A stretch of 64,000 nucleotides of DNA from Candidatus Dechloromonas phosphoritropha (GTDB taxonomy: Bacteria; Pseudomonadota; Gammaproteobacteria; Burkholderiales; Rhodocyclaceae): NCBI GenBank assembly GCA_016722705.1, contig JADKGN010000001.1:512744-576743 (forward strand). Direction: 5' to 3'. A model generated the notes under the pieces. It was not told the DNA's origin, made no database searches, and worked only from the letters and a program-made list of their open reading frames with translations. The translations under genes and the position numbers were made by a program. The number at the start of each line of letters is the position of its first letter. Position 1 is the first letter of the stretch. Positions 12,049-29,180 of this stretch are shown piece by piece.

Positions 12049-13263
12049 ATGACGAGTTTGCATCTGGAAGACCTGCGCAAGGACACGGCATATGCGCTGC
12101 TGCTTTCGTGTTGCCGGGTATACGCCAGCGCGGCGGACAGGTCTCTGCAACACCGCTTGGCCAAAGAACTCGACAACGAGCGTTTTCTCGCGCTGGCGGA
12201 ACGGCATCTTGTCGGTTCTCTGGTCTGGCACAACCTGAACCGGCATCCGCAAGGTACTTTCGATGCCGGGCTGATGGCGGCGCTATTGAGCAGCCATCGG
12301 CAGAACGTGATCAGCGAAATGGTGTCGGCGCACGCGGCGGTCAAGTTGCATCGCCTGCTGGCCGGGGCTGGACTCCCGCATTGCCTGCTCAAGGGCCTGG
12401 CCGTCGGGCAACGCTACTATGCCGCCCCGGGGCTGCGCGGAACCGGAGACATCGATCTGCTGGTCCCGCAGGCAAGCTTTGACGAGGTCAACCGGCTGTT
12501 GCTGAATGCTGGCTACGCCGCACCCAATCCGATCGATGCCCTGACGTCGCGGCAACGGCGCTATTTCATGTTTCAGCAGAACCAGGTCGAGTTCCAGGCA
12601 CCCGGCTCTGGTGTGATTATCGAACTTCACTGGCGACTGGATCAGGTGCCGTACACGCTGGCCGGCCTCGAGTCCGCGGCGCCGCTGGCGAAGGTGACAA
12701 TTGCGGATGCCAGGATTGCCTGTCTCGATGACGAGGAGATGTTGCTGCACCTGTGCGTGCATGGCGGCAAGCATGCGTGGTTTTGCCTGAAGTGGGTTTT
12801 TGATCTGCCCAATGTTCTGGAAAGCCGGGAATGGGATTGGCCGGCACTGCGGAAAAAAGCCAGGTCTTACCGCTGCGAGCATGCGCTGCTCCTCGGCTTG
12901 CTGGTCGCCGAGAAGCTCTGCGGCTGGGTTGTGCCGGCAACCGTTCGCCCCTGGCTTGAGCATCGGGGCGGCCTCGATCGTCATTTTGGCCTGATCGTCA
13001 AGGCCATAACGCATGCCGAAGGCTGGCTGAATTCGCCTGCCGGCATCGTGCAGCGCAACCTGTATGCCGCCAGCTTCAACGACGGGCTGGATTGCTGGAC
13101 CTATCAGCTGGCGACGGTGGCCACCCACCGCCGGGACTGGGAACTGCTGCCGCTGCCCGATGCGCTGTTTCCGCTGTATTTCGCGTTGAGCCCGTTTACC
13201 AACATCTGGCATCTCGCGCAGCGTTTTCGCCGGTTTGGGCAGGCGCCGGCGCGCCTGGTCTGA
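12049..13263 (+). CDS. NTP_transf_5 family nucleotidyltransferase
   Basis: LLKGLAVGQRYYAAPGLRGTGDIDLLV...IELHWRL...HLCVHGGKHAW. Confidence 0.75.
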   Translation: MTSLHLEDLRKDTAYALLLSCCRVYASAADRSLQHRLAKELDNERFLALAERHLVGSLVWHNLNRHPQGTFDAGLMAALLSSHRQNVISEMVSAHAAVKLHRLLAGAGLPHCLLKGLAVGQRYYAAPGLRGTGDIDLLVPQASFDEVNRLLLNAGYAAPNPIDALTSRQRRYFMFQQNQVEFQAPGSGVIIELHWRLDQVPYTLAGLESAAPLAKVTIADARIACLDDEEMLLHLCVHGGKHAWFCLKWVFDLPNVLESREWDWPALRKKARSYRCEHALLLGLLVAEKLCGWVVPATVRPWLEHRGGLDRHFGLIVKAITHAEGWLNSPAGIVQRNLYAASFNDGLDCWTYQLATVATHRRDWELLPLPDALFPLYFALSPFTNIWHLAQRFRRFGQAPARLV

Positions 13264-18583: not shown

Positions 18584-20306
18584 CCCGGATGTTTCATAAA
18601 CCCGCCGCGCGATGTCAATGTCGTGCCATTCCAGCCGTGATGCGAGTCAGCTTGCTGCGAATTTTGCTGCCAACCCGCCACGATCGGCCAAATACCCCAA
18701 CTTTTGGGCATCACACCCTGCCGCCATCGATCCCTGGACAGAGCGCTGGCGAGACCTCACCTCCGCTCAAGCGGATTCGAGTCGGCAGCATGAGACGGCG
18801 TCGCCGAGTCGATCAGGCCGGTGCCGGCGGGCGCGGGACGAGGTAAAGCAACTCGGTCACCCGCGCCAGCACCCCCTTCATCGGACACGACGTAGGCAAG
18901 GACAGCTTGATCCGATCCTTGTACTGCACCACGCGCACCGCCAACTTAAAGAGTTTCAGGATAATCGACAGCGGTTGCGCCTTGGCCAGTTCCGTATGCA
19001 CCAGCGTGTTCTCGCGCAAGCCGTGAATCAACCCATACGCCGCACACGAATAGAACAGCCGCAGGTGATTGGCGAGGAAGGCATGATCGGAGGTCCGGTC
19101 ACTGGCCAAGTCGTTCTTCACCGCCTTGATGAAGTTCTCGTCCTGCCCTCGAGCACAGTACAGCTCTTTGTAAAGCACATCAGGCGTCGGGTCGGACAGC
19201 GAGGTCACCACGTACCGCGGGTTGTCACCCAAGGCCATCACCTCGGCCTTGACCACCACGCGGTAAGCCTTGGGCCACGAGCCCGCCTGATACTCGATAT
19301 CGTCGTACAGTCGTGTCGCCGCAGGCTCGGCGTTCCCCAGGCGCTGGGCGTTGGCGCTGTGTGTCTGGTGCAGCGCACGGGCTTTCTTCAGCAGCGGCTC
19401 GGCCTTGGGCGAGAGCACCTGGTTGCCGGCCAGGCCGAAGAGGAAGTCCAGATGCGGATCGGACGCGCACAAGGCCATCAGTTCGGGATTCGAGAAGTGG
19501 CCATCCCCGCGCAGAATGATGTGGGTCTCGGGCCAGGCCTGGCGGAGCAGGTGCAGCACGCGCTTGATGATGACCGCATTCTCTTTACCGGTGGGACGCT
19601 TGCCCGGACGCAGGACGGCGGTGATCAGCTTCCCGGAGAGTCCTTCGAAGAGGAACAACGGCAGGTAGCAATGATTGCCGTAGTGGTGGTTGTAGAACGC
19701 CAGTTCCTGCTGCCCGTGAGTGGCATCCTCAGAGTGATCCATATCCAGCACGATCACGGCAGGCGCTTGGGCGTAGCTGGCGATGAAGGCGTCGACGAAG
19801 CTTTTGGCCAGGCGGTAAATGTCTTTGCGCGATACGCTGTTCTCGAGCCGGGAGAGCGTGGGGCCGGAGGCCAGGTCATTTCCCTCGCCCAGCGGGGCAC
19901 GACCGACCGCCAGTTTGAACAGCGGATCGCGCCGCAGCGTGTTGGCGTCATTACCGTCGGCGTAGCCGCTGGCGGTCTGGAATATCCGCTGACGAAGCAG
20001 GTCGGCCAGCGGATGGTCAATGTACGAGGCGTGGCGTTTGTCGTGAATCGCGCTGACCAGGCGGGGAATCAGGCCGATTTGCAGGTCGATGCCACGCAAC
20101 AGGAGTGCGCCAAAGTCGGAGGACATCGCCCCGCCGTCAAACTCTGCCCGGATCGTAAATCCGGCGCTGGCGGGAAAGCGAAGCTGGGTTGGGATAGAAT
20201 GGTCCATGGGCGGTCTCGTTTAGGCTTCTTACAAAGCGTTATTGGCGTAACCCCTATTATATCAATGGGTTAAACGAGATTCGCCTGCTTTTATGAAAAA
20301 TTCGGG
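18584..20306 (-). mobile_element. IS1380-family insertion sequence
   Basis: IRs CCCGGATGTTTCATAAA and TTTATGAAAAATTCGGG. 4-bp duplication CTAA at 18580-18583 and 20307-20310. Confidence 0.85.
18813..20207 (-). CDS. IS1380-family transposase
   Basis: 464 aa ...FDGGAMSSDFGALLLRGIDLQIGL...YNHHYGNHCYLPLF. Confidence 0.9.
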   Translation of the reverse strand: MDHSIPTQLRFPASAGFTIRAEFDGGAMSSDFGALLLRGIDLQIGLIPRLVSAIHDKRHASYIDHPLADLLRQRIFQTASGYADGNDANTLRRDPLFKLAVGRAPLGEGNDLASGPTLSRLENSVSRKDIYRLAKSFVDAFIASYAQAPAVIVLDMDHSEDATHGQQELAFYNHHYGNHCYLPLFLFEGLSGKLITAVLRPGKRPTGKENAVIIKRVLHLLRQAWPETHIILRGDGHFSNPELMALCASDPHLDFLFGLAGNQVLSPKAEPLLKKARALHQTHSANAQRLGNAEPAATRLYDDIEYQAGSWPKAYRVVVKAEVMALGDNPRYVVTSLSDPTPDVLYKELYCARGQDENFIKAVKNDLASDRTSDHAFLANHLRLFYSCAAYGLIHGLRENTLVHTELAKAQPLSIILKLFKLAVRVVQYKDRIKLSLPTSCPMKGVLARVTELLYLVPRPPAPA

Positions 20307-20328: not shown

Positions 20329-20601
20329 TCAAACCTTGAGCACCAAGCCTCGTTCAGCCAGTTCCCCGGCCAGTTTGATGACATCACCCTGCAATTGCTC
20401 GGCCGTGACTTCGTACTCTTCGAGCATCGTTGCGCTGATTTCCGCCAGCGTCCTGCCCTCGCCCATCAGTTCCCAGATACGTGCGCCGACCGGGTCCAGC
20501 CCGAAGTAGCTGCCGCCTGCCAGGTCGAGGATCACGATCTCTTCACCGACCTCACGTGCCATGACCTGGACCGGGATCGTTACCTTGTCCGTCAATTCCA
20601 T
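20329..20601 (-). CDS. PqqD-family peptide-binding protein (lasso B1 / RRE)
   Basis: MELTDKV...EIVILDLAGGSYFGLDPVGARIWELMGEGRTLAEI. AGGGAG RBS 7 nt upstream. Confidence 0.8.
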   Translation of the reverse strand: MELTDKVTIPVQVMAREVGEEIVILDLAGGSYFGLDPVGARIWELMGEGRTLAEISATMLEEYEVTAEQLQGDVIKLAGELAERGLVLKV

Positions 20602-20611
20602 CAATTGCTCC

Positions 20612-21460
20612 CTAAATTTCAGCCTGTTCGAGAATGGCCCGGCGCACCGCCGGCAACGCGGCGAACGATCTTGGATAATCAAGTCGGAAAACGATCGGCA
20701 AATTGGCCATCTCCGTCACCTGGTTGAAATGGGCTGACAACGACTCCCGGCCTTCAATATCGAGCAGGAAGGAATTACCCACCAGCCCCATCACGGCTTC
20801 GCCCGGCGTCATCGGCGCAAAGCTTACCTGATCGACATCGCCCGGGCCGAGGAAATACATGCGCCGCAGCATTCGCTCTTCGGAGCAAAACGCCAGCGCT
20901 TCGCCGGAAAGCAACCGCGCCTTGGAAGTGTATTGGACGGCGGGCGCCAGATGCGCGTCGTCGCCCACCAGTTCGTCCCTGCTGTCGTCCCACAGGCGGA
21001 TCGACGGATGACTGGGCTGGACCGCATAGCCACCGGCTTTGGGTTCAAGCAACAGGGCATCGTCGGCCAGGAAGCGGTGACCAGCCAAGGCGAAACTTGC
21101 CGCCAGCGTCGACTTGCCACGCCCCGATTCGCCAAGAAACGCCAGCGCACCCGCTGGAGCCTCGATGGCACTGGCATGAAACACCCGCTTGCCCTGCCGG
21201 CTCAACGCCAGTGGCAGCACCTGATTGAGATAGAGGTGCCTGATGGTCTCTTCGGAGATACCGGGAACTGGCCACGATGACACGACTTGACCATCCGCTG
21301 AAACTTCGAAATCCGCAAGTTCGGGAAAGCGCAGCAAATAGCCTGACCCGGTCCGATAGAAACGCGTCCACAGCGTCCCGTCCGGAAAAATCCACTCGTG
21401 GAAAAAAGCCGACTCAAGCGGCTCCTGCGGGGGAACATCCGCCAGATGAAAGTCGATCAC
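20612..21460 (-). CDS. HprK-related P-loop kinase
   Basis: GESGRGKSTLAASFALAGHRFLADD. GTG start overlaps the methyltransferase stop (GTGA). Confidence 0.8.
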   Translation of the reverse strand: MIDFHLADVPPQEPLESAFFHEWIFPDGTLWTRFYRTGSGYLLRFPELADFEVSADGQVVSSWPVPGISEETIRHLYLNQVLPLALSRQGKRVFHASAIEAPAGALAFLGESGRGKSTLAASFALAGHRFLADDALLLEPKAGGYAVQPSHPSIRLWDDSRDELVGDDAHLAPAVQYTSKARLLSGEALAFCSEERMLRRMYFLGPGDVDQVSFAPMTPGEAVMGLVGNSFLLDIEGRESLSAHFNQVTEMANLPIVFRLDYPRSFAALPAVRRAILEQAEI

Positions 21461-22578
21461 GACTCGGAATCCCTGCCCAGAACCTTGGCGACAAAACGCG
21501 AAATCTCCTCGGGCGAGGGAAAGAGATCGGGATGATCGCGCAAAACGGCGGCTTCGATCTGCGCGACCGTCCGCTGGCCATCGCAGTACACAAGGATCGT
21601 CGCGGTCGCCCTCCCCGTCTGGCCAAGCCGCGGCACGCGCTCGGGGTTAGCCTGCAGCAACTGCTCCGGTGTCAATAACTCGCCTTGCCACGTCGACTGC
21701 GCGAAGCGCCGTCCGGTCGCCGGAAACTCGACGACCCAGGCAATTAGATGATCGGCCGGCCGGGCCATGATTGTTGCCTTCACCCGCTCGCCCGCCTTGA
21801 CCGCAACGGCCTCATCGATGGGCAAGAAGGCCTGGTTGCGCTGGATGGCTGGTTCCGCCAACGGCGAATTGGTCATCCACACCCCTTCGGCCAGCTCACA
21901 CTCGAACCAGCCGCCCAGGCCATGCATCAACCCATCACGCTCGATATGCAGCTCAGCGTTCCACGAGAAGAAATCCGGATGATTCGCATAAAGGTCAATA
22001 TCGCCCAGCACAGCCGGCGCACAAAACACGTCGGTGCGTTCCAGACTGACGGCATGTCTGGTGTTAACCGCATGCTTACGCAGCCAGTGGAAGACTTGAG
22101 GAATGTTTTCTGCCTGCCAGGCGTTGGCCAGTTCGTCGCAGCGCTGCGAACCGACTGCCGCGACGTTCAGCCGAATTCGCGAAGGGATGAGCTTGCCGCC
22201 GGGTTTGAGAAAGCGCTTCCTGGCGTCTTCAAGAAACCCGACGATACCGTAATCGAAGCCGAAATAGCCGACATGATCGCAGATGACCACGTCCACCCGT
22301 TCCGGCAACTCGATCTGGCTCGACTTGCCGCGAATGAAGGTGGCGCGCTCACCCTGCCCGGCCCGCTGCAACGAATCGCGGGCCACGTCGGTCATGGCAC
22401 TATCGTCGATGGCGAAGACATGCCGGGCGCCAGCGTGCAGACACAAGAAGCCCAACACACCGGAACCACAGCCCAAGTCGGCAACGACATCGCCGGCCGC
22501 TAGCAACTTTCCTATGGCTGATTGATAGCGCTCAAGCCTGACTGCATCGGCGACATAGCCTAAGTGCTCTTCCAGCAT
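21457..22578 (-). CDS. Class I SAM methyltransferase, PRMT-like core with C-terminal PqqD-like segment
   Basis: VVADLGCGSGVLG...FAIDDS...VDVVICDHVGYFGFDYG...FLKPGGKLIP. The tail ATILVYCDGQRTVAQIEAAVL resembles PqqD helices. Confidence 0.7.
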   Translation of the reverse strand: MLEEHLGYVADAVRLERYQSAIGKLLAAGDVVADLGCGSGVLGFLCLHAGARHVFAIDDSAMTDVARDSLQRAGQGERATFIRGKSSQIELPERVDVVICDHVGYFGFDYGIVGFLEDARKRFLKPGGKLIPSRIRLNVAAVGSQRCDELANAWQAENIPQVFHWLRKHAVNTRHAVSLERTDVFCAPAVLGDIDLYANHPDFFSWNAELHIERDGLMHGLGGWFECELAEGVWMTNSPLAEPAIQRNQAFLPIDEAVAVKAGERVKATIMARPADHLIAWVVEFPATGRRFAQSTWQGELLTPEQLLQANPERVPRLGQTGRATATILVYCDGQRTVAQIEAAVLRDHPDLFPSPEEISRFVAKVLGRDSES

Positions 22579-22920
22579 AAACCGGTGCTAACTTTTGGGA
22601 TTGGTTGGATTCTGCGTATGACCGTGTATGCCCAGCATCCGGTCACTGAAATTTTCATGCATAGGCCACAGCAAGAGGATATTCAATGAGGGAACACTCC
22701 TCAATAAACACGGCATAGACAGGAATTCAGCACGTAAGGGTCATTATTGTAGGACGCCGATCGCTTGTTGCAAAGTGCTCCATTGACGATACGAGCAGCA
22801 TAATAAGCAGCGAGGCCATCCGTTTCATGTAATGCCTTCTCAGCGTGCCTTGTGCGAAGCGCAAATACTTTCAGCCAATGACACAAAAGCCGAAACTCAA
22901 TCTGCAGTGCAGCTTTTGGG

Positions 22921-23073
22921 TTACGGCTTCCTTCTCTGGGCAGTCATCATTGCCCCTTCGGTACTTGACCCCGCTCCCCCTTGAGTCAAAAAACGCACAT
23001 CGCCATGACGAACGAGCTTTGGCGAGGCGTAAGGTTTTTTCAGTTTTTGCTTTGGGAACGGAAAATCCGTCAT
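22921..23073 (-). CDS. Lasso peptide precursor A2 (50 aa)
   Basis: Hand translation: MTDFPFPKQKLKKPYASPKLVRHGDVRFLTQ/GGAGSSTEGAMMTAQRRKP. Leader fits YxxPxLxxxGxxxxxTx. Core has Gly1 and Glu8. Confidence 0.8.
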   Translation of the reverse strand: MTDFPFPKQKLKKPYASPKLVRHGDVRFLTQGGAGSSTEGAMMTAQRRKP

Positions 23074-23077
23074 ACCG

Positions 23078-23230
23078 TTATGCCTTCCTGGACCTCCACT
23101 TCATACTAGTGGTTTCTGAGGTCCCCTTTGACCCCGATTGAGTCAGACTGCGTACATCACCGTGGCAAACGAGATTGGGTGGGGCGTAAGGCTTTTTAGC
23201 GTCCTTTTTCGGCAAGAACTTGTCGGTCAT
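23078..23230 (-). CDS. Lasso peptide precursor A1 (50 aa)
   Basis: Hand translation: MTDKFLPKKDAKKPYAPPNLVCHGDVRSLTQ/SGSKGTSETTSMKWRSRKA. Same leader motif. Core has Ser1 and Glu8. Confidence 0.8.
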   Translation of the reverse strand: MTDKFLPKKDAKKPYAPPNLVCHGDVRSLTQSGSKGTSETTSMKWRSRKA

Positions 23231-23235
23231 GAATA

Positions 23236-25164
23236 TCACTCACTTTTTGACGGAAAAAACGCGGGATGCACATCGACCCAGCGTGCAAGAACTGCCATTG
23301 TAAACAATTGATACCCATTTTCATACTCCGCGCCCCGTTCATGCACTGCCCACGCCCGAATAAGGCGCTCTCGGTCAACCCACGTGTTCAACCTGCCCGC
23401 GAGATACTCGTGATTCCAAATCTCGGGCCGCGATTCAGCAGTTGCTGAAATCAGTTGTTCATAGGCCTTCCAGCCCGGATGACTGCCCACGTCGCAGCGC
23501 AGGCGAACAGTCTCCGGCAGCACGTCGGCGGTTGCTTCACGCATGAGATTCTTGTACCAGGGCACGCTTAGCTTTGCCGCGACCGGCATCTGGATGGCAA
23601 ACTCGATCATCCGGCGATCGGAAAATGGACTGCGCGGCTCCACCCCGCTGGCGAAGGCGAGTTGTCCATACACTTCATGGGCAAAGGAAAGCAGCCCCGA
23701 CGTAAAGCTCCGCGCATGAGTGGCCTGATCGTTGCCGGGCTTTATTGCCACCTCTCCCTGACACGCCTGGCGATGCTTCTCGGCGAGCCAGGGAATGACT
23801 TTATCGCGCTTCAACAGGGCGAGATCGTCGTGCAGCACCCGCCGCTTTTCGCGGAGTCGCCGATAGATAGTGCGCACGCCGGGCGGCGTGATGGCGGCGA
23901 GTGATCGAATCATTACCGTGCGGGTGCGGTTTTCGAAACCGTGCCTGCCGAAAGCAGTAAAAACATCCGGCAGGCGGCCCAGCATCTTTCCGCGCAGAAT
24001 GGTATCGAGACTGCGGTCAACGCCGTAAAACAGTAAATCTCCGGCCATGCCGTCGAGCACCACGCGACAACCTTGGCTCTGCCCGGCTTCATAGACCATG
24101 GCATAGGTCAGCCCGTGCGATAGCGCGAAGGGTTCATCGATCCTAGCGATATTGTCCAGACTGGCCTTGCCGCCTTCTCCCGCGACTGCCGAAGTGAGAA
24201 CGACCGGGTCGATCCAGCCATCCTTCATCATCTCCTGTATGTGCTGCCAGTCCTTGCAGTTTTCCCGGTCTTCGCGGATCAGTGAGATGGTTTTCAGCGG
24301 CTGTTGCAGGTCGCCGCGAAATTCCTTGCGGATCAGGCCGACGATGGAGGACGAATCGAGCCCGCCGCTAAGCATGGCGCCGACCGGGCCGTTACTGCGC
24401 AGGCGGCATTTCACGGCAACGCGCATTTGATCGAGAAAGGCTTCGGCACACTCTTCCAGCGAGGAGAACTTGTTGACCGGCAGATTGCCCGGCTCCCAAT
24501 AGCGCCAGGTCTTCACCCCTTGCGCGGAAACCTCGATGGCGTGCCCCGCCGGCAGACGGACGATATCCTGATAGAAGGTTCCGATCTGGTCATCGCGGTC
24601 GTATGCCTCGACAAGGTAATCGAGTACGCGCGACTCGTTCAGACGGGCGGCGATCAGGCCGGTGGCCAGCAGGCCCTTGATCTCCGAGGCAAAGCCGAAC
24701 CAGCCCCGGCCGGCGTGATAGTAGAAATGCCGGGTCCCCGCCGCATCGCGCGCGCCGAACAGGCTGCGCCGCCGCTCGTCCCAGATGAAGAAGGCGAATT
24801 CGCCGATGATGCGGTCGGGACATTGCGCCCCCCAAACCTCATAAGCGCGCAACACCAGTTCGGCATCGGTGCGGTCACGCAGGACAGCCCCGCGCCCGAG
24901 CAGCTCGTGCCGGAGATCATCGCCGTTGTCCACCCGCCCATCCATCACCAGCACGATACTTGTATCTTCGTTGGCGAGGGGCTGACATTCGTCCATAGAC
25001 TCGAGCGTCGTACGAAACATGCACTGCCCTAAGGCAACCTGGCCTTTGTGCCAATGGTGAATGCCATCCGGCCCGCGCTGCACCATGGCAGTCGTCATCT
25101 TTTCGATCGAACCAGGTTCAATTGGCGCACCATCGAAGCGGATGATGCCGGCAATGCCGCTCAT
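23236..25164 (-). CDS. Asparagine-synthetase-like lasso cyclase (C protein)
   Basis: AsnB fold with the SGGLDSS PP-loop. N-terminus is MSGIAGI, so the catalytic Cys of true AsnB is replaced by Ser. Confidence 0.8.
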   Translation of the reverse strand: MSGIAGIIRFDGAPIEPGSIEKMTTAMVQRGPDGIHHWHKGQVALGQCMFRTTLESMDECQPLANEDTSIVLVMDGRVDNGDDLRHELLGRGAVLRDRTDAELVLRAYEVWGAQCPDRIIGEFAFFIWDERRRSLFGARDAAGTRHFYYHAGRGWFGFASEIKGLLATGLIAARLNESRVLDYLVEAYDRDDQIGTFYQDIVRLPAGHAIEVSAQGVKTWRYWEPGNLPVNKFSSLEECAEAFLDQMRVAVKCRLRSNGPVGAMLSGGLDSSSIVGLIRKEFRGDLQQPLKTISLIREDRENCKDWQHIQEMMKDGWIDPVVLTSAVAGEGGKASLDNIARIDEPFALSHGLTYAMVYEAGQSQGCRVVLDGMAGDLLFYGVDRSLDTILRGKMLGRLPDVFTAFGRHGFENRTRTVMIRSLAAITPPGVRTIYRRLREKRRVLHDDLALLKRDKVIPWLAEKHRQACQGEVAIKPGNDQATHARSFTSGLLSFAHEVYGQLAFASGVEPRSPFSDRRMIEFAIQMPVAAKLSVPWYKNLMREATADVLPETVRLRCDVGSHPGWKAYEQLISATAESRPEIWNHEYLAGRLNTWVDRERLIRAWAVHERGAEYENGYQLFTMAVLARWVDVHPAFFPSKSE

Positions 25165-25200
25165 GGGAAGCGGCTCGAGGGGCAAACAGGTTCAGTCACG

Positions 25201-25605
25201 TTATCGGGTCGCAATTCTTTTCACCAGTTCCAAATACTGTTCCAGCACGCTGTCCGTAGTCAGTAAATAAGCCGGGAGGGATTGCGCTTGAGCGACGAAC
25301 AGCCGGTCAAACGGGTCGCGGTGATGCCAAGACATTTGCGCAATGGCATAACTGTGACTTGCTGCAACGGGCAATTCGGTAAAGCCGGTTTGTAACGCCA
25401 GTTGGTGGATGTCCTCAGGGAGAAAGTTGAAATAATCGCGCCCCAGAGAGGGCTCGATTGCAATTTCCCACAGGCTGGCGGCGCTGAAATAGACGATGGT
25501 TCGCGGGTCTTGCAGCAGAGATTGAGTCTCCGGCGGCAACACCTCGGGCTTGATGAGCGCTGCCAGCAATACCTTGGTATCGAGCAGCCATTTTTGCCTG
25601 GGCAT
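25201..25605 (-). CDS. vapC: PIN-domain toxin (VapC family)
   Basis: 134 aa ...LLDTKVLL...SLWEIAI...HRDPFDRL. Confidence 0.85.
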   Translation of the reverse strand: MPRQKWLLDTKVLLAALIKPEVLPPETQSLLQDPRTIVYFSAASLWEIAIEPSLGRDYFNFLPEDIHQLALQTGFTELPVAASHSYAIAQMSWHHRDPFDRLFVAQAQSLPAYLLTTDSVLEQYLELVKRIATR

Positions 25606-25607
25606 AT

Positions 25608-25850
25608 TCAGGCGTCTCCTTCAAACATGCGCTGAATGGCTTCATTGTGCAGGCTGGAAAAGTTTTCCGGCAGGTTGAATTTACCCTTTCCCAGACCCAG
25701 TGTGCACGGCTTGATCTCGGTTTCGGCTAACGCAACCAGGCGTGCAACGGGTTCCCCGGAACGGGCGATAACGATTTCTTCGCCAGCCGCGGCTTGATCG
25801 ACAAAACGCGAAAGATGGGTTTTTGCTTCGTGAATGTTGACGGTTTGCAT
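25608..25850 (-). CDS. Phd/YefM-family antitoxin
   Basis: MQTVNIHEAKTHLSRFVDQAAAGEEIVIARSGEPVARLV. Confidence 0.85.
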   Translation of the reverse strand: MQTVNIHEAKTHLSRFVDQAAAGEEIVIARSGEPVARLVALAETEIKPCTLGLGKGKFNLPENFSSLHNEAIQRMFEGDA

Positions 25851-25987: not shown

Positions 25988-26452
25988 TCATGAGAACTGA
26001 CTCGTCGAAACGGGTTTATCGAAGGTGGCATACCGTATGGCAATGTCAGGCACGTCGTTGATTGGCTGGCCCGCGATCTCCACCCAGGCGTGCGCGGCGA
26101 ACTCACCGTTCTCGCAGCGAACGCCGATGCGCAGATCGCTGGTCGTGCCGTAAAAACGCAGTAGCCAGCGCAGCAACAGCGAACGCGTCAGGCAACTGGT
26201 CGCCCCTAAAACACGGTTCGCCGCACGGTTAACCGCTAGCCCCAGCGCGGCAGCCTCCGCTTGGCTCAACGGCGGGCGCCGGGCAAGTGGGAAGTGATCG
26301 AGCCAAGCCTGGAAACGCTGCAAGCCGGCCAGGCGCAGGCCCAACCAGAAGAGCGGCAGCAACACCAGCGAAGCCAGCAGCACCCATTGCTCGCGTCCGG
26401 AGAGCGCACGGTAGGTGGAGAAATAATGGGTAAAGGTGGGCATCGCGATCAT
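25988..26452 (-). CDS. Lasso peptide B2 protease (transglutaminase-like)
   Basis: ...ATSCLTRSLLLRWLLRFYG...FAAHAWVEIAGQPIND (Cys/His/Asp). Confidence 0.85.
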   Translation of the reverse strand: MIAMPTFTHYFSTYRALSGREQWVLLASLVLLPLFWLGLRLAGLQRFQAWLDHFPLARRPPLSQAEAAALGLAVNRAANRVLGATSCLTRSLLLRWLLRFYGTTSDLRIGVRCENGEFAAHAWVEIAGQPINDVPDIAIRYATFDKPVSTSQFS

Positions 26453-27132: not shown

Positions 27133-28815
27133 TCATTGCGTTGCAAGATGCGTCCCTCTCGCAATCGGCTGCGTGTCGTCGGCGATCCCTCCAGCCACCA
27201 TGCGTACGATTCGATCCGCCAGCGCCAGGCTGGCCGGACGATGCGTGATGAGGATCACCGTCCTCTTGCTCAGCGCGTGATGACAGTCTTCGATGAATGA
27301 TCTTTCGCCCTGCGGGTCGAACATTGCCGTGGCTTCATCGAGTATGAGTATTGGCGCATCCTTGAGCAGGGCACGCGCCAGAGCAATGCGCTGACGCTGA
27401 CCGCCCGACAGCTTGACGCCCTGATCGCCAATCATCGTGTCATACCCCTGCGGCAGGCGGCTAATGAAATCGTGCGCCTGGGCCGTTCTGGCAGCCCTCT
27501 CAATCGCTGCATGGTCGGCATCGAAGCGGCCATAGCCAATGTTGTCGCGCACGCTCCCGTTGAACAGCAGCACATGCTGCGGAACAATGCCGATCTGGCT
27601 GCGCAGGCTACGCAGGCTGACGCCCGCAATGTCGATGCCGTCGATCAATATCTGCCCGCCATCCGGCTCGTGAAGTCGCATCAGCAGATGGACGATCGTG
27701 CTTTTCCCGGCACCGTTTTCGCCGGTAAGGGCCACCGTTTCTCCGGCACGAATGTGCAGGTCGATGGCTTGCAGCGCCGGAGCGCGTCCGGGGTAGGCGA
27801 AGGTAACATCACGAAACTCGATTTCGCCGAGCACCGCCGGTAGTACCCGGTCACCGTGAAATATCGGCTCGGGAGATTCGTTGAGGACGCTCTGCAGTCG
27901 TTTCAGGGTCCCGCGCGCCTGTTGCGTCTGGCCGTAAATGCTGGCCAGCGCACTGACCGGGCGCGTCAGGAGCGCGGCGTAGAGCAGGAAGCTGACCAGT
28001 TCCGCCGGCGTCATGCTGCCGTCACCAACCCGCTCGCTCGCCAGCCAAAGGATGAGCAACACCGCGGAAGCGGCAACGAACTGTATGGAAGGCTCGAGCG
28101 CGGCGTGGATTTTATGCTCGGTCATGCTGAGGTGAAAGATACGCAGAATCTGCTTGCGATAGCGTTGTGATTCCTCTGGCTCGCGCGTAAAGGTCTTGAT
28201 CGCCGGCAACATGCCGAGATTTTCCTCGGCGATGCCAACGGCGGCGGCATGTTCCGCCTGCAACTGGCTGGCAAGCGGACGCAACCGGCGCCCGATGATC
28301 TTGAGCAGCAGATAGAACAAGGGAATCAGTACGGCGATCATGACGCCAAGCAGCAGATCGGTACGGAACAGGACGAATACCGCACCGGCCACTGTCAGCA
28401 ACTGCGGAATCATCTGCAACAATGTGCCGGTGATGAAACCGGACAGTTGGGCAGCCTCGAAAGTAAGCATGGCCAGAATGTCGCCCTGGCGCCGTTGATG
28501 ATAGAAAGCGAGCGGCAAGGCCTGCAGGTGATCATAAATACGAACACGCAAATCCGCCAGAATCCGTTCGCTGGTGCTGCCCAACAGATAAGCGTTGGCA
28601 AACTTGAGTAGCGCCTGCACGGCAAAGAGCGCGAGCAGGATCAGTAATATTGGACCGACGTTGGCTTGGCTGCCCGCCAGCAAATCGCCAGCGAAACGAC
28701 CTCCCAGCCAGGGTATGGCCAGCACCGTCGCGGTTTCGATCAGCATCAGGATGCCGGCAAGGGCGAGACTGACTCGATATGGCGCGGCGTAACCCAGGAG
28801 CAAGCGTAAATTCAT
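27133..28815 (-). CDS. ABC exporter, fused permease/ATPase (McjD-like role inferred)
   Basis: Six-TM domain plus GENGAGKST, LSGGQRQR and ILILDEAT. It ends soon after GTH, so it may be 3'-truncated. Confidence 0.85.
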   Translation of the reverse strand: MNLRLLLGYAAPYRVSLALAGILMLIETATVLAIPWLGGRFAGDLLAGSQANVGPILLILLALFAVQALLKFANAYLLGSTSERILADLRVRIYDHLQALPLAFYHQRRQGDILAMLTFEAAQLSGFITGTLLQMIPQLLTVAGAVFVLFRTDLLLGVMIAVLIPLFYLLLKIIGRRLRPLASQLQAEHAAAVGIAEENLGMLPAIKTFTREPEESQRYRKQILRIFHLSMTEHKIHAALEPSIQFVAASAVLLILWLASERVGDGSMTPAELVSFLLYAALLTRPVSALASIYGQTQQARGTLKRLQSVLNESPEPIFHGDRVLPAVLGEIEFRDVTFAYPGRAPALQAIDLHIRAGETVALTGENGAGKSTIVHLLMRLHEPDGGQILIDGIDIAGVSLRSLRSQIGIVPQHVLLFNGSVRDNIGYGRFDADHAAIERAARTAQAHDFISRLPQGYDTMIGDQGVKLSGGQRQRIALARALLKDAPILILDEATAMFDPQGERSFIEDCHHALSKRTVILITHRPASLALADRIVRMVAGGIADDTQPIARGTHLATQ

Positions 28816-29180
28816 GGCTTCGGAGGGTATCTGAAAAACAGCGACGAAAAAATGGTCCTGAAACCACATCCGCACGGTTGAGGAATTGCCCGGCTATGCC
28901 GATATGTCAACGACCATGATATCCATGCACGTGCCCAACCGGGGCAGGCGTGGGCTGGTCTTGCCTGTCGACCGCATGCAGTCGTCGTTACGCAGCGTTT
29001 CAACCATTGTTCACGATGCGGCGCGCTGGGGCGCGGTAAGCAGGTTTGTCGCGGTCGTCCGTGAAAAAGGGACAAAATTGGTGGCGTGGTTGTGCTGCCG
29101 CTTTCACAATGGCGGCATGGTCGTATAACCGGATTTGCGCAGCCTTTCGTCTGCCTTGAATACACGCCAGAGAATGCCCG

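Follow-up and report, generated by a model that had tools for sequence, protein, structure and literature searches.

A putative peptide methyltransferase in a lasso-peptide gene cluster: the question

What does an enzyme built like a eukaryotic arginine methyltransferase do in a bacterial lasso-peptide gene cluster? The question is raised by a gene of Candidatus Dechloromonas phosphoritropha, located in a stretch of 64,000 nucleotides of contig JADKGN010000001.1 (positions 512,744 to 576,743; this whole stretch is called the window, and all coordinates given below refer to it). The gene is an intact open reading frame (ORF; 21457..22578, minus strand) with an ATG start, 373 codons and a stop, and the plus-strand reading of the same segment contains many stops. 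A sequence-only reading of this DNA had assigned to its product a protein arginine methyltransferase (PRMT) core and a built-in RRE (recognition element for RiPPs, peptides that are ribosomally synthesized and modified post-translationally), and had proposed that it N-methylates Arg or Lys side chains of the lasso tail. The results presented below point to a PRMT-fold enzyme that is probably a leader-guided, kinase-coupled tailoring methyltransferase of lasso peptides; this degree of confidence applies to the general statement, not to any single methyl acceptor. In reviews up to June 2026, lasso-peptide methylation comprises only C-terminal O-methylation and the methylation of Asp that leads to aspartimide.

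The catalytic core has PRMT architecture

A single-sequence phmmer search of the PDB with the window protein matched PRMT6 (E-value 2e-23) as well as CARM1, PRMT8 and PRMT1, over residues 7-275. With a profile built from 23 family members, PRMT8 was matched at an E-value of 5.6e-33 (residues 5-279, aligned to PRMT8 residues 50-331), and all 60 of the 60 listed matches were PRMTs. The Pfam families recognized in the window protein were Methyltransf_25, PrmA and PRMT_C, the last of which covers the β-barrel (27.6 bits against a cut-off of 27). The AlphaFold2 (AF2) model had an overall predicted local distance difference test score (pLDDT) of 81, with values mostly of 80-96 in the core and low confidence in the arm region (residues 157-172). 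When this model was submitted to Foldseek, PRMT6, PRMT1, CARM1 and PRMT3 were retrieved with an E-value of 7e-27 and a TM-score of ~0.75 over ~315 columns.

The sequence-only reading had recognized a PRMT core in the N-terminal 150 residues. This was borne out, and because the profile, Pfam and Foldseek matches extend further, the homology spans the whole two-domain core, up to residue ~279. The Foldseek and PDB profile searches thus place the enzyme with the PRMTs and not in an unrelated small-molecule methyltransferase family. All of the strings quoted in that reading were located in the translation: motif I VVADLGCGSGVLG (residues 31-43), the post-I segment FAIDDS (55-60), the acidic loop VDVVICDHVGYFGFDYG (95-111), FLKPGGKLIP (123-132) and, in the C-terminal part, GRATATILVYCDGQRTVAQIEAAVLRDHPDLFPSPEEISRFV (322-363).

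The Rossmann fold, motif I, post-I, the N-terminal S-adenosylmethionine (SAM)-lid helix and the β-barrel with an inserted (dimerisation) arm were all identified. Among 117 diverse family members, residues H5, D11, R14, D34, G36, G38 and G40 and an acid at position 58 are conserved, and the motif I residues D34, G36, G38 and G40 show little or no variation.

A different result was obtained for the two signatures by which PRMTs recognize arginine. The acidic loop VDVVICDHVGYFGFDYG aligns without gaps to the PRMT double-E loop (SEWMGY..YES), represented by SEWMGYGLLHES in PRMT6 and SEWMGYCLFYES in PRMT8, so its proposed position is correct column for column, but the two canonical Glu residues are not kept. 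E144 is replaced by D101, while the column of E153 is occupied by Y110 (A in other clades), the acid being shifted to position 109. At position 101 we found D in 105 and E in 11 of the 117 members, and at position 109 D in 49, E in 42 and G in 13. The THW loop aligns to I-Q-R247-N-Q in the window enzyme, and position 247 is R in 100, W in 12 and Y in 4 members. Since neither the double-E nor the THW signature is conserved, we refer to the protein as "PRMT-fold" and not as a PRMT.

The eukaryotic type I PRMTs (PRMT1, PRMT6, PRMT8, CARM1 and PRMT3) share with the window enzyme the Rossmann fold, the barrel with its arm, the SAM-lid residues, motif I and post-I, at ~25% identity over ~275 residues. 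The window enzyme differs from them in having D101...D109-Y110 instead of E...Y-E and x-R247-x-Q instead of THW, in its bacterial origin and location in a RiPP cluster, in its additional C-terminal PqqD-like domain, and in that the peptides encoded beside it and its relatives are often Arg-free.

A comparison was also made with the methyltransferases already known from lasso clusters, LasF/StspM (C-terminal O-methyl ester) and LihM/TceM (resembling protein isoaspartyl methyltransferases, PIMTs; Asp methyl ester, then aspartimide), which are likewise SAM-dependent. StspM acts on the linear precursor (PMC8498205, PMC9266682). LasF/StspM have a mitomycin-7-O-methyltransferase-like fold and LihM/TceM a PIMT fold, in contrast to the PRMT fold of the window enzyme, and the overlap in Pfam and NCBIfam is limited to generic SAM motifs; a PqqD-like domain and coupling to a kinase, both found for the window enzyme, are absent from the two groups. 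No StspM-type O-methyltransferase was matched in Pfam or NCBIfam, all strong matches being PRMTs, and PCMT/PIMT was absent from the Pfam, NCBIfam and PDB match lists. NCBIfam contains no curated model for the enzyme, and the best matches there were generic SAM motifs far under their cut-offs. At the level of sequence and predicted structure, these comparisons show a SAM-dependent enzyme of PRMT architecture with intact SAM-binding motifs, not a small-molecule O-methyltransferase.

The gene is maintained between lasso precursor and kinase genes

The window encodes a lasso cyclase (C), a leader peptidase (B2), a discrete RRE (B1), an ABC exporter and two precursors (A1 and A2) with the YxxPxLx3Gx5Tx leader motif. 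The cluster lies entirely on the minus strand, in the order ABC, NTP_transf_5 fragment, B2, Phd/PIN, cyclase, A1, A2, methyltransferase, kinase, B1. The start of the HprK-like kinase gene overlaps the stop of the methyltransferase gene by 4 bases; the two genes are translationally coupled, and the pair is flanked by the precursor genes on one side and by the discrete RRE gene on the other.

The window kinase carries an H...GESGRGKS...DD motif, in agreement with the catalytic motif described for BsfK, a lasso kinase (PMC10368454). HprK-like kinases with the same motif are ThcoK/PadeK, SyanK, PsmK (with PsmN) and BsfK (with BsfN), and NTP_transf_5 genes co-occur with them as they do here. The characterised kinase clusters differ from the present one in that no methyltransferase has been reported in any of them, and the cores described here do not end in Ser.

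More than 1200 proteins of a 90%-identity database match the enzyme, and full-length homologues of 85-94% identity exist. At 50% identity approx. 820 clusters were retrieved with E<1e-30; among the 150 top entries listed, nearly all measure ~370-390 amino acids (aa) and were aligned over their full length, including the tail. Where these proteins are named, they carry only generic annotations, namely "class I SAM-dependent methyltransferase", "protein arginine N-methyltransferase 1" or "L11 methyltransferase".

The order cyclase, precursor, methyltransferase, kinase, B1 recurs in 52 loci (designated by L numbers), originating from Beta-, Gamma- and Alphaproteobacteria, Cyanobium, Nitrospira, Acidobacteria, Myxococcales and Binataceae. 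The kinase gene is located directly downstream of the methyltransferase gene in at least 45 of the 51 loci with enough downstream flank. By automatic count it is missing from this position in six of the 51; in L024, L026, L027 and L044 it is found elsewhere in the locus, and only L008 and L041 show no kinase at all. Clusters with a kinase only do exist. Among the carriers of the family, Caenimonas koreensis DSM 17982, Novosphingobium sp. ERN07 and Cyanobium sp. ATX 6A2 are examples available in culture.

When metagenomes were scanned with another kinase clade as the seed, a second arrangement emerged, B1, B2, C, precursor, kinase, methyltransferase (L088-L167; e.g. L092 3704-8148, L097 307-4560 and L127 3672-7953), in which a PRMT-like methyltransferase gene follows the kinase gene in 25 of 39 loci. 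The enzymes of this second subfamily are 27-34% identical to the window enzyme and retain the tail. In their pocket, position 247 is Y and position 109 is aromatic, with no acid, and their cognate cores carry a C-terminal [K/R]-T-x(0-2) motif (...LKTA, ...NKTN, ...HKT) and few Met residues. In related kinase clusters lacking the methyltransferase, the core ends in ...FP(K/R)(D/N)(R/K)(T/S)xV.

The family is thus almost confined to lasso-peptide clusters, where it occurs between precursor and kinase or RRE genes across phyla. The conservation of gene order in more than 50 loci upholds the lasso tailoring role suggested by the sequence-only reading and supports a family dedicated to this function. 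That reading had also called the step undescribed; no description was found in the literature searched, including the reviews of lasso modifications mentioned above.

The C-terminal domain resembles the helical half of PqqD

When residues 300-373 were modelled alone, AF2 predicted helices at 304-309, 320-331, 338-348 and 356-370 with a pLDDT of 91. In the linker (299-304) the pLDDT was <50, which suggests that the tail is flexibly tethered.

Searches with the window sequence itself gave no assignment: its C-terminal 85 aa had zero Pfam matches at E<=10, the PqqD family threshold not being reached, and BLASTP of the tail against B1 of the same cluster gave no match. Signals appeared at the level of the family. 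Pfam PqqD was matched, below threshold, by 13 of 65 diverse family tails (best E-value 2e-4) and was the family most commonly matched; a sample of ten hand-picked tails missed the PqqD-matching members. A profile of the family tails ranked PqqD (5SXY) first in the PDB, with an E-value of 0.046. A hidden Markov model (HMM) constructed from the B1 proteins of the clusters matched 83 of 117 tails at E<=10, compared with 18 of 585 shuffled tails; the best E-value was 0.004 and only three were at E<=0.1. The alignments shown cover PqqD α1-α3, including an L-x-DG-x-(R/H)-(T/S)-x-x-E-I motif, and the last amphipathic helix of the tail (F-V-x-x-V-L) is also PqqD-like. In a comparison of the tail family with the B1 family by hhalign, the match was limited to 21 columns (probability 5%).

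In the RRE winged helix, a three-stranded sheet precedes three helices, and the cleft lies between β3 and α3. Several observations weigh against leader recognition by the tail. Its model is devoid of predicted β-strands, whereas half of the leader-binding cleft of known RREs is formed by the β-sheet. Foldseek returned zero RRE or PqqD proteins among the best 50 matches, all with E>=0.7; the best match was the C-terminal domain of Mycobacterium tuberculosis Rv2067c and the others were generic winged-helix proteins. A winged-helix family of protein lysine methyltransferases (PKMTs; Pfam PKMT_2nd) was matched instead by 8 of the 65 tails. Finally, a discrete B1 is already encoded in the cluster, and a second leader binder is not obviously required.

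In comparison with PqqD and free-standing RREs such as lasso B1, the tail lacks β1-β2, has no predicted β3, remains below the Pfam threshold and is fused to an enzyme. A strand might arise only upon peptide binding. Taken together, the matches weakly support a real, minimal PqqD-like domain of ~75 residues, distantly related to PqqD/RRE proteins and comprising their helical half only. The likeness of the last ~60 residues to this half, proposed in the sequence-only reading, was recovered weakly but consistently in the family-level searches. The term "built-in RRE" was apt for a PqqD-like helical tail and too strong for a truncated domain without predicted strands and with no RRE among its best structural matches. 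Leader binding by this putative truncated RRE-like tail is plausible.

Cognate cores and candidate methyl acceptors

In order to narrow down the acceptor, we collected 51 cores encoded beside window-type enzymes. Of these, 19 (including that of L004 and those of the Novosphingobium or Caenimonas clusters L023, L024 and L035) contain neither Arg nor Lys, and 29 are without Arg. The enzyme pocket columns (C-D-H ... F-D-Y ... R-x-Q in Proteobacteria; A-D-Q ... F-E-A ... R in others) are identical whether or not the cores of a locus are basic. An acceptor group common to all cores is therefore to be expected, which removes Arg/Lys as the family-wide target. The Arg/Lys-rich core ends noted in the sequence-only reading are indeed present in the window, KWRSRKA at 23078-23230 and AQRRKP at 22921-23073, and both cores contain Arg; as the function of the family, however, the side-chain N-methylation built upon them is not supported, given the invariant pocket, the Arg/Lys-free cores and the loss of the guanidinium signatures.

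Three groups are widespread among the cores: (i) Met, since the tails are rich in Met and Gly (typical motifs GMxMM and GMGM), with Met accounting for 132 of 563 tail residues (23%), at least one tail Met in 49 of the 51 cores and at least two in 38; (ii) a ring Ser or Thr, found in 51 of 51 cores and located at core position 2 or 3 in 39; and (iii) the C-terminal carboxylate, present on every core, the last residues of which are highly variable (P, A, L, M, G and others). The contents of Met and of Arg+Lys are anticorrelated (rho -0.48, p 4e-4, not corrected for phylogeny). The lasso kinase BsfK phosphorylates core Ser3, and its activity is stimulated by B1 (PMC10368454); the Ser/Thr at position 2 or 3 resembles this target. 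Pocket residues and the conserved core feature switch together between the subfamilies, from a Met-rich tail to the [K/R]-T C-terminal motif, which argues for a side chain or a phosphorylated side chain as the acceptor and against the terminus. That the methyltransferase depends on the kinase points to either chemistry on the kinase product or phospho-dependent recognition.

Two positions in the leader were considered and rejected as targets. An Arg at -5 was found in only about half of the leaders, and a conserved Lys/Arg ahead of the YxxP motif is common in lasso leaders generally.

In the precursors of 23 of the 51 cores, leader and core are followed by a C-terminal Peptidase_S74 domain (~130 aa in total), as in L002 (8287-8694 and 8728-9126), L004 (9572-9967) and L006 (7164-7565), and also in L009, L010, L012-L014, L018-L020, L025, L026, L029, L033, L037-L039, L042 and L059. 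In the endosialidase tailspikes of phages, Peptidase_S74 serves as an intramolecular chaperone that cleaves itself, and its S-D/E-x-x-x-K dyad motif is present. The endosialidase domain cleaves before Ser; if the same applied here, cleavage would leave cores with the endings ...MM, ...MA or ...MP, as in the unfused ones. No paper linking S74 domains to lasso peptides was found in the literature searched. In many relatives the methyltransferase gene starts ~30-60 bp past the end of the precursor gene or of its S74 domain; in the window, a non-coding spacer of ~340 bp separates A2 from the methyltransferase start (22578-22920). A degraded S74 follower domain was sought after the window precursors and no remnant was detected.

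Cores ending in Cys-Leu were also observed beside the methyltransferase, in L045, L046, L048, L050, L051, L053 and L055 (Nitrospira, Acidobacteria, Binataceae and a deltaproteobacterial metagenome-assembled genome). This ending is conserved (...MRCL, ...MMCL, ...KHCL, ...MTCL, ...PPCL, ...SMCL, ...VACL).

Proposed mechanism and alternatives

In the mechanism that we favor, the methyltransferase would act on the linear precursor with the leader still attached, as most lasso tailoring enzymes do (PMC8498205, PMC13352647). Recruitment would rely on its own PqqD-like domain, on the discrete B1 or on the two in combination, and the enzyme would work together with, and probably after, the kinase. 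The methyl group would be transferred to a group common to all cognate cores, before removal of the leader by B2 and ring closure by C.

As to the chemistry, it is a serious though tentative possibility that a retargeted PRMT scaffold, delivered by a cut-down PqqD domain, carries out a methylation outside the lasso modifications covered by the reviews. This could take two forms: (a) S-methylation of Met in the Gly/Met-rich tail to a permanently cationic sulfonium, or (b) O-methylation of the phosphate set on a ring Ser/Thr by the co-translated kinase. The sulfonium would explain the mutual substitution of Met and Arg/Lys in the core tails, and the Gly/Met motifs (GMGM, GGMM) recall, by analogy, the RGG motifs of PRMT substrates. 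Methylation of the phosphate would explain why the methyltransferase is found rarely, if ever, without a kinase, while kinases occur without the methyltransferase. Several points speak against these two forms. Peptidyl-Met S-methylation and peptide-phosphate methylation are absent from the lasso modifications in the reviews, and we know of neither in any RiPP. The Met statistics take no account of phylogeny, two cores have no tail Met, and the window cores are unusually poor in Met (one and two residues), with three to four Arg/Lys in the tail.

Of the individual acceptors, the thioether sulfur of the Met-rich tail, converted to S-methylmethionine sulfonium, is possible, and a group other than those named here is equally so; the kinase-installed phosphate on ring Ser/Thr follows as a more doubtful candidate, and an Arg/Lys nitrogen and the C-terminal carboxylate are both unlikely, to the same degree. 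The leading named candidates are therefore the Met sulfur and the phosphate.

A true Arg/Lys N-methyltransferase acting on the basic C-terminal core tail (KWRSRKA, AQRRKP) would agree with PRMT as the closest known fold, with the two acids kept in the loop (D101 and D109), with the Arg/Lys clusters ending both window cores, and with the Lys or Arg conserved beside Thr in nearly all cores of the second subfamily. We nevertheless consider it improbable: the Arg/Lys-free and Arg-free cores are served by an identical pocket, the second Glu of the double-E is Y or A, the His-Trp of THW is replaced by x-R, and an Arg in the pocket would be an odd partner for a guanidinium group. The window peptides are atypical in their low Met and high Arg/Lys content, so Arg/Lys methylation may occur at this locus, where it would be a special case and not the purpose for which the family was built. 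Equally improbable is a C-terminal carboxyl O-methyltransferase, similar to LasF/StspM in function and different in fold. The universal carboxylate, the variable last residues (as expected if the enzyme recognizes the terminus alone), the conserved R247, which could bind a carboxylate, and the existence of lasso peptides that bear methyl esters at the C terminus (PMC8498205) are all in its favor. On the other hand, the terminus of about half of the precursors is masked by the self-cleaving S74 domain, a switch of the pocket with core side-chain features would be needless for a terminus-specific enzyme, homology to the StspM-type fold is missing, and the PRMT pocket is presumably a deep channel fitting long side chains.

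It is also conceivable, though very unlikely, that the enzyme is not leader-guided at all, and that the tail is a structural or oligomerisation winged helix serving a methyltransferase of another pathway protein or a cell-envelope component. Small helical C-terminal domains on class I protein methyltransferases are known from Rickettsia PKMT1/2 (PKMT_2nd) and Rv2067c (8HKR), to which the tail shows the weak matches described above; in Rv2067c a helical dimerisation domain, and not a PRMT β-barrel, comes after the catalytic domain (PMC10739865). The lack of a predicted β-sheet in the tail and the exopolysaccharide (EPS) export genes that flank the cluster here and in Dechloromonas would fit such a role. 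However, these methyltransferases have no RiPP context, whereas the gene studied here is almost never found outside the lasso precursor/kinase/RRE position, across phyla; the EPS neighbourhood is not conserved in most loci, and for the tail the match to PqqD is both stronger and more frequent than that to PKMT_2nd. A leader-guided, kinase-coupled lasso tailoring enzyme remains the reading that we prefer.

Genomic setting

The coordinates of the features are collected in Table 1. The A1 core (SGSKGTSETTSMKWRSRKA) and the A2 core (GGAGSSTEGAMMTAQRRKP) have 19 residues each, and Glu8 is the likely ring acid. B1 homologues have 90-92 aa. The NTP_transf_5 gene in the cluster is a fragment: family members have ~370-410 aa, and tblastn of the fragment spans only residues 97-215 of the L004 homologue.

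Table 1. Features of the lasso-peptide cluster in the window.
Feature	Position	Strand	Basis
PRMT-fold methyltransferase with PqqD-like C-terminal domain	21457..22578	-	ORF, PDB profile, Foldseek, homologues
PRMT-like catalytic core, residues 1-295: N-terminal SAM-lid helix (H5, D11, R14), Rossmann fold, β-barrel with arm	21694..22578	-	PRMT8 alignment, Pfam, AF2
SAM-binding motif I VVADLGCGSGVLG, residues 31-43	22450..22488	-	translation, PDB alignment
Loop at the PRMT double-E position, VDVVICDHVGYFGFDYG, residues 95-111; D101 and D109 replace the two Glu	22246..22296	-	gap-free PRMT6/PRMT8 alignment
C-terminal PqqD-like helical domain, residues 300-373, on low-confidence linker	21460..21681	-	AF2 and weak PqqD similarity
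HprK-like peptide kinase, 282 aa	20612..21460	-	Pfam Hpr_kinase_C, NCBIfam HprK_rel_A, both weak
Discrete lasso RRE (B1, PqqD family), 90 aa from internal ATG	20329..20601	-	Pfam PqqD E 4e-20; NCBIfam lasso_PqqD
Precursor A2: MTDFPFPKQKLKKPYASPKLVRHGDVRFLTQ (leader) + GGAGSSTEGAMMTAQRRKP (core)	22921..23073	-	leader motif YxxPxLx3Gx5Tx, ring acid E8
Precursor A1: MTDKFLPKKDAKKPYAPPNLVCHGDVRSLTQ (leader) + SGSKGTSETTSMKWRSRKA (core)	23078..23230	-	leader motif YxxPxLx3Gx5Tx, ring acid E8
Lasso cyclase (C, asparagine-synthetase-like)	23236..25185	-	Pfam Asn_synthase and GATase_7; NCBIfam lasso cyclase E 1e-125
Phd/PIN toxin-antitoxin pair	25201-25850	-	Pfam
Leader peptidase B2 (transglutaminase-like)	25988..26452	-	Pfam Transglut_core3; NCBIfam lasso_biosyn_B2 83 bits vs cut-off 33
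NTP_transf_5 nucleotidyltransferase gene fragment, 151 aa	26640..27095	-	Pfam profile positions 68-162 of 249
ABC exporter (D)	27133..28875	-	Pfam ABC_membrane and ABC_tran

A full-length NTP_transf_5 gene (404 aa; 12049-13263, plus strand) is located 7 kb past the cluster on the opposite strand, separated from it by EPS export genes (CpsB, Poly_export, Wzz/BY-kinase) and a DnaJ-domain gene. This split arrangement recurs in Dechloromonas (L003).

The PIN toxin and Phd/YefM antitoxin pair (25201-25605 and 25608-25850, minus strand) is inserted between the cyclase and B2 genes. Homologous clusters elsewhere are interrupted, at differing points, by toxin-antitoxin or mobile genes (Fic, MazE, HepT/NTP_transf_2, DUF29, Uma2, transposases). 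In the window, an IS4-family DDE transposase gene (18813-20207, minus strand; 464 aa; Pfam DDE_Tnp_1_4, E 4e-150) is present between B1 and the DnaJ/EPS genes; the long antisense ORF that covers it (18612-20273, plus strand) is probably spurious.

Significance

Lasso peptides attract interest as drug-design scaffolds, and the repertoire of tailoring reactions known for them is small. The enzyme described here would represent a third family of lasso methyltransferases, structurally unrelated to the other two and conserved in hundreds of clusters from many phyla. It would also be a case of a eukaryote-type PRMT fold recruited to bacterial RiPP biosynthesis, fused to a pared-down PqqD-like module and linked to a peptide kinase. 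The enzyme could define the requirements of a minimal leader-binding module, and the identity of its acceptor could reveal new peptide chemistry, e.g. a sulfonium or a methyl-phosphate.

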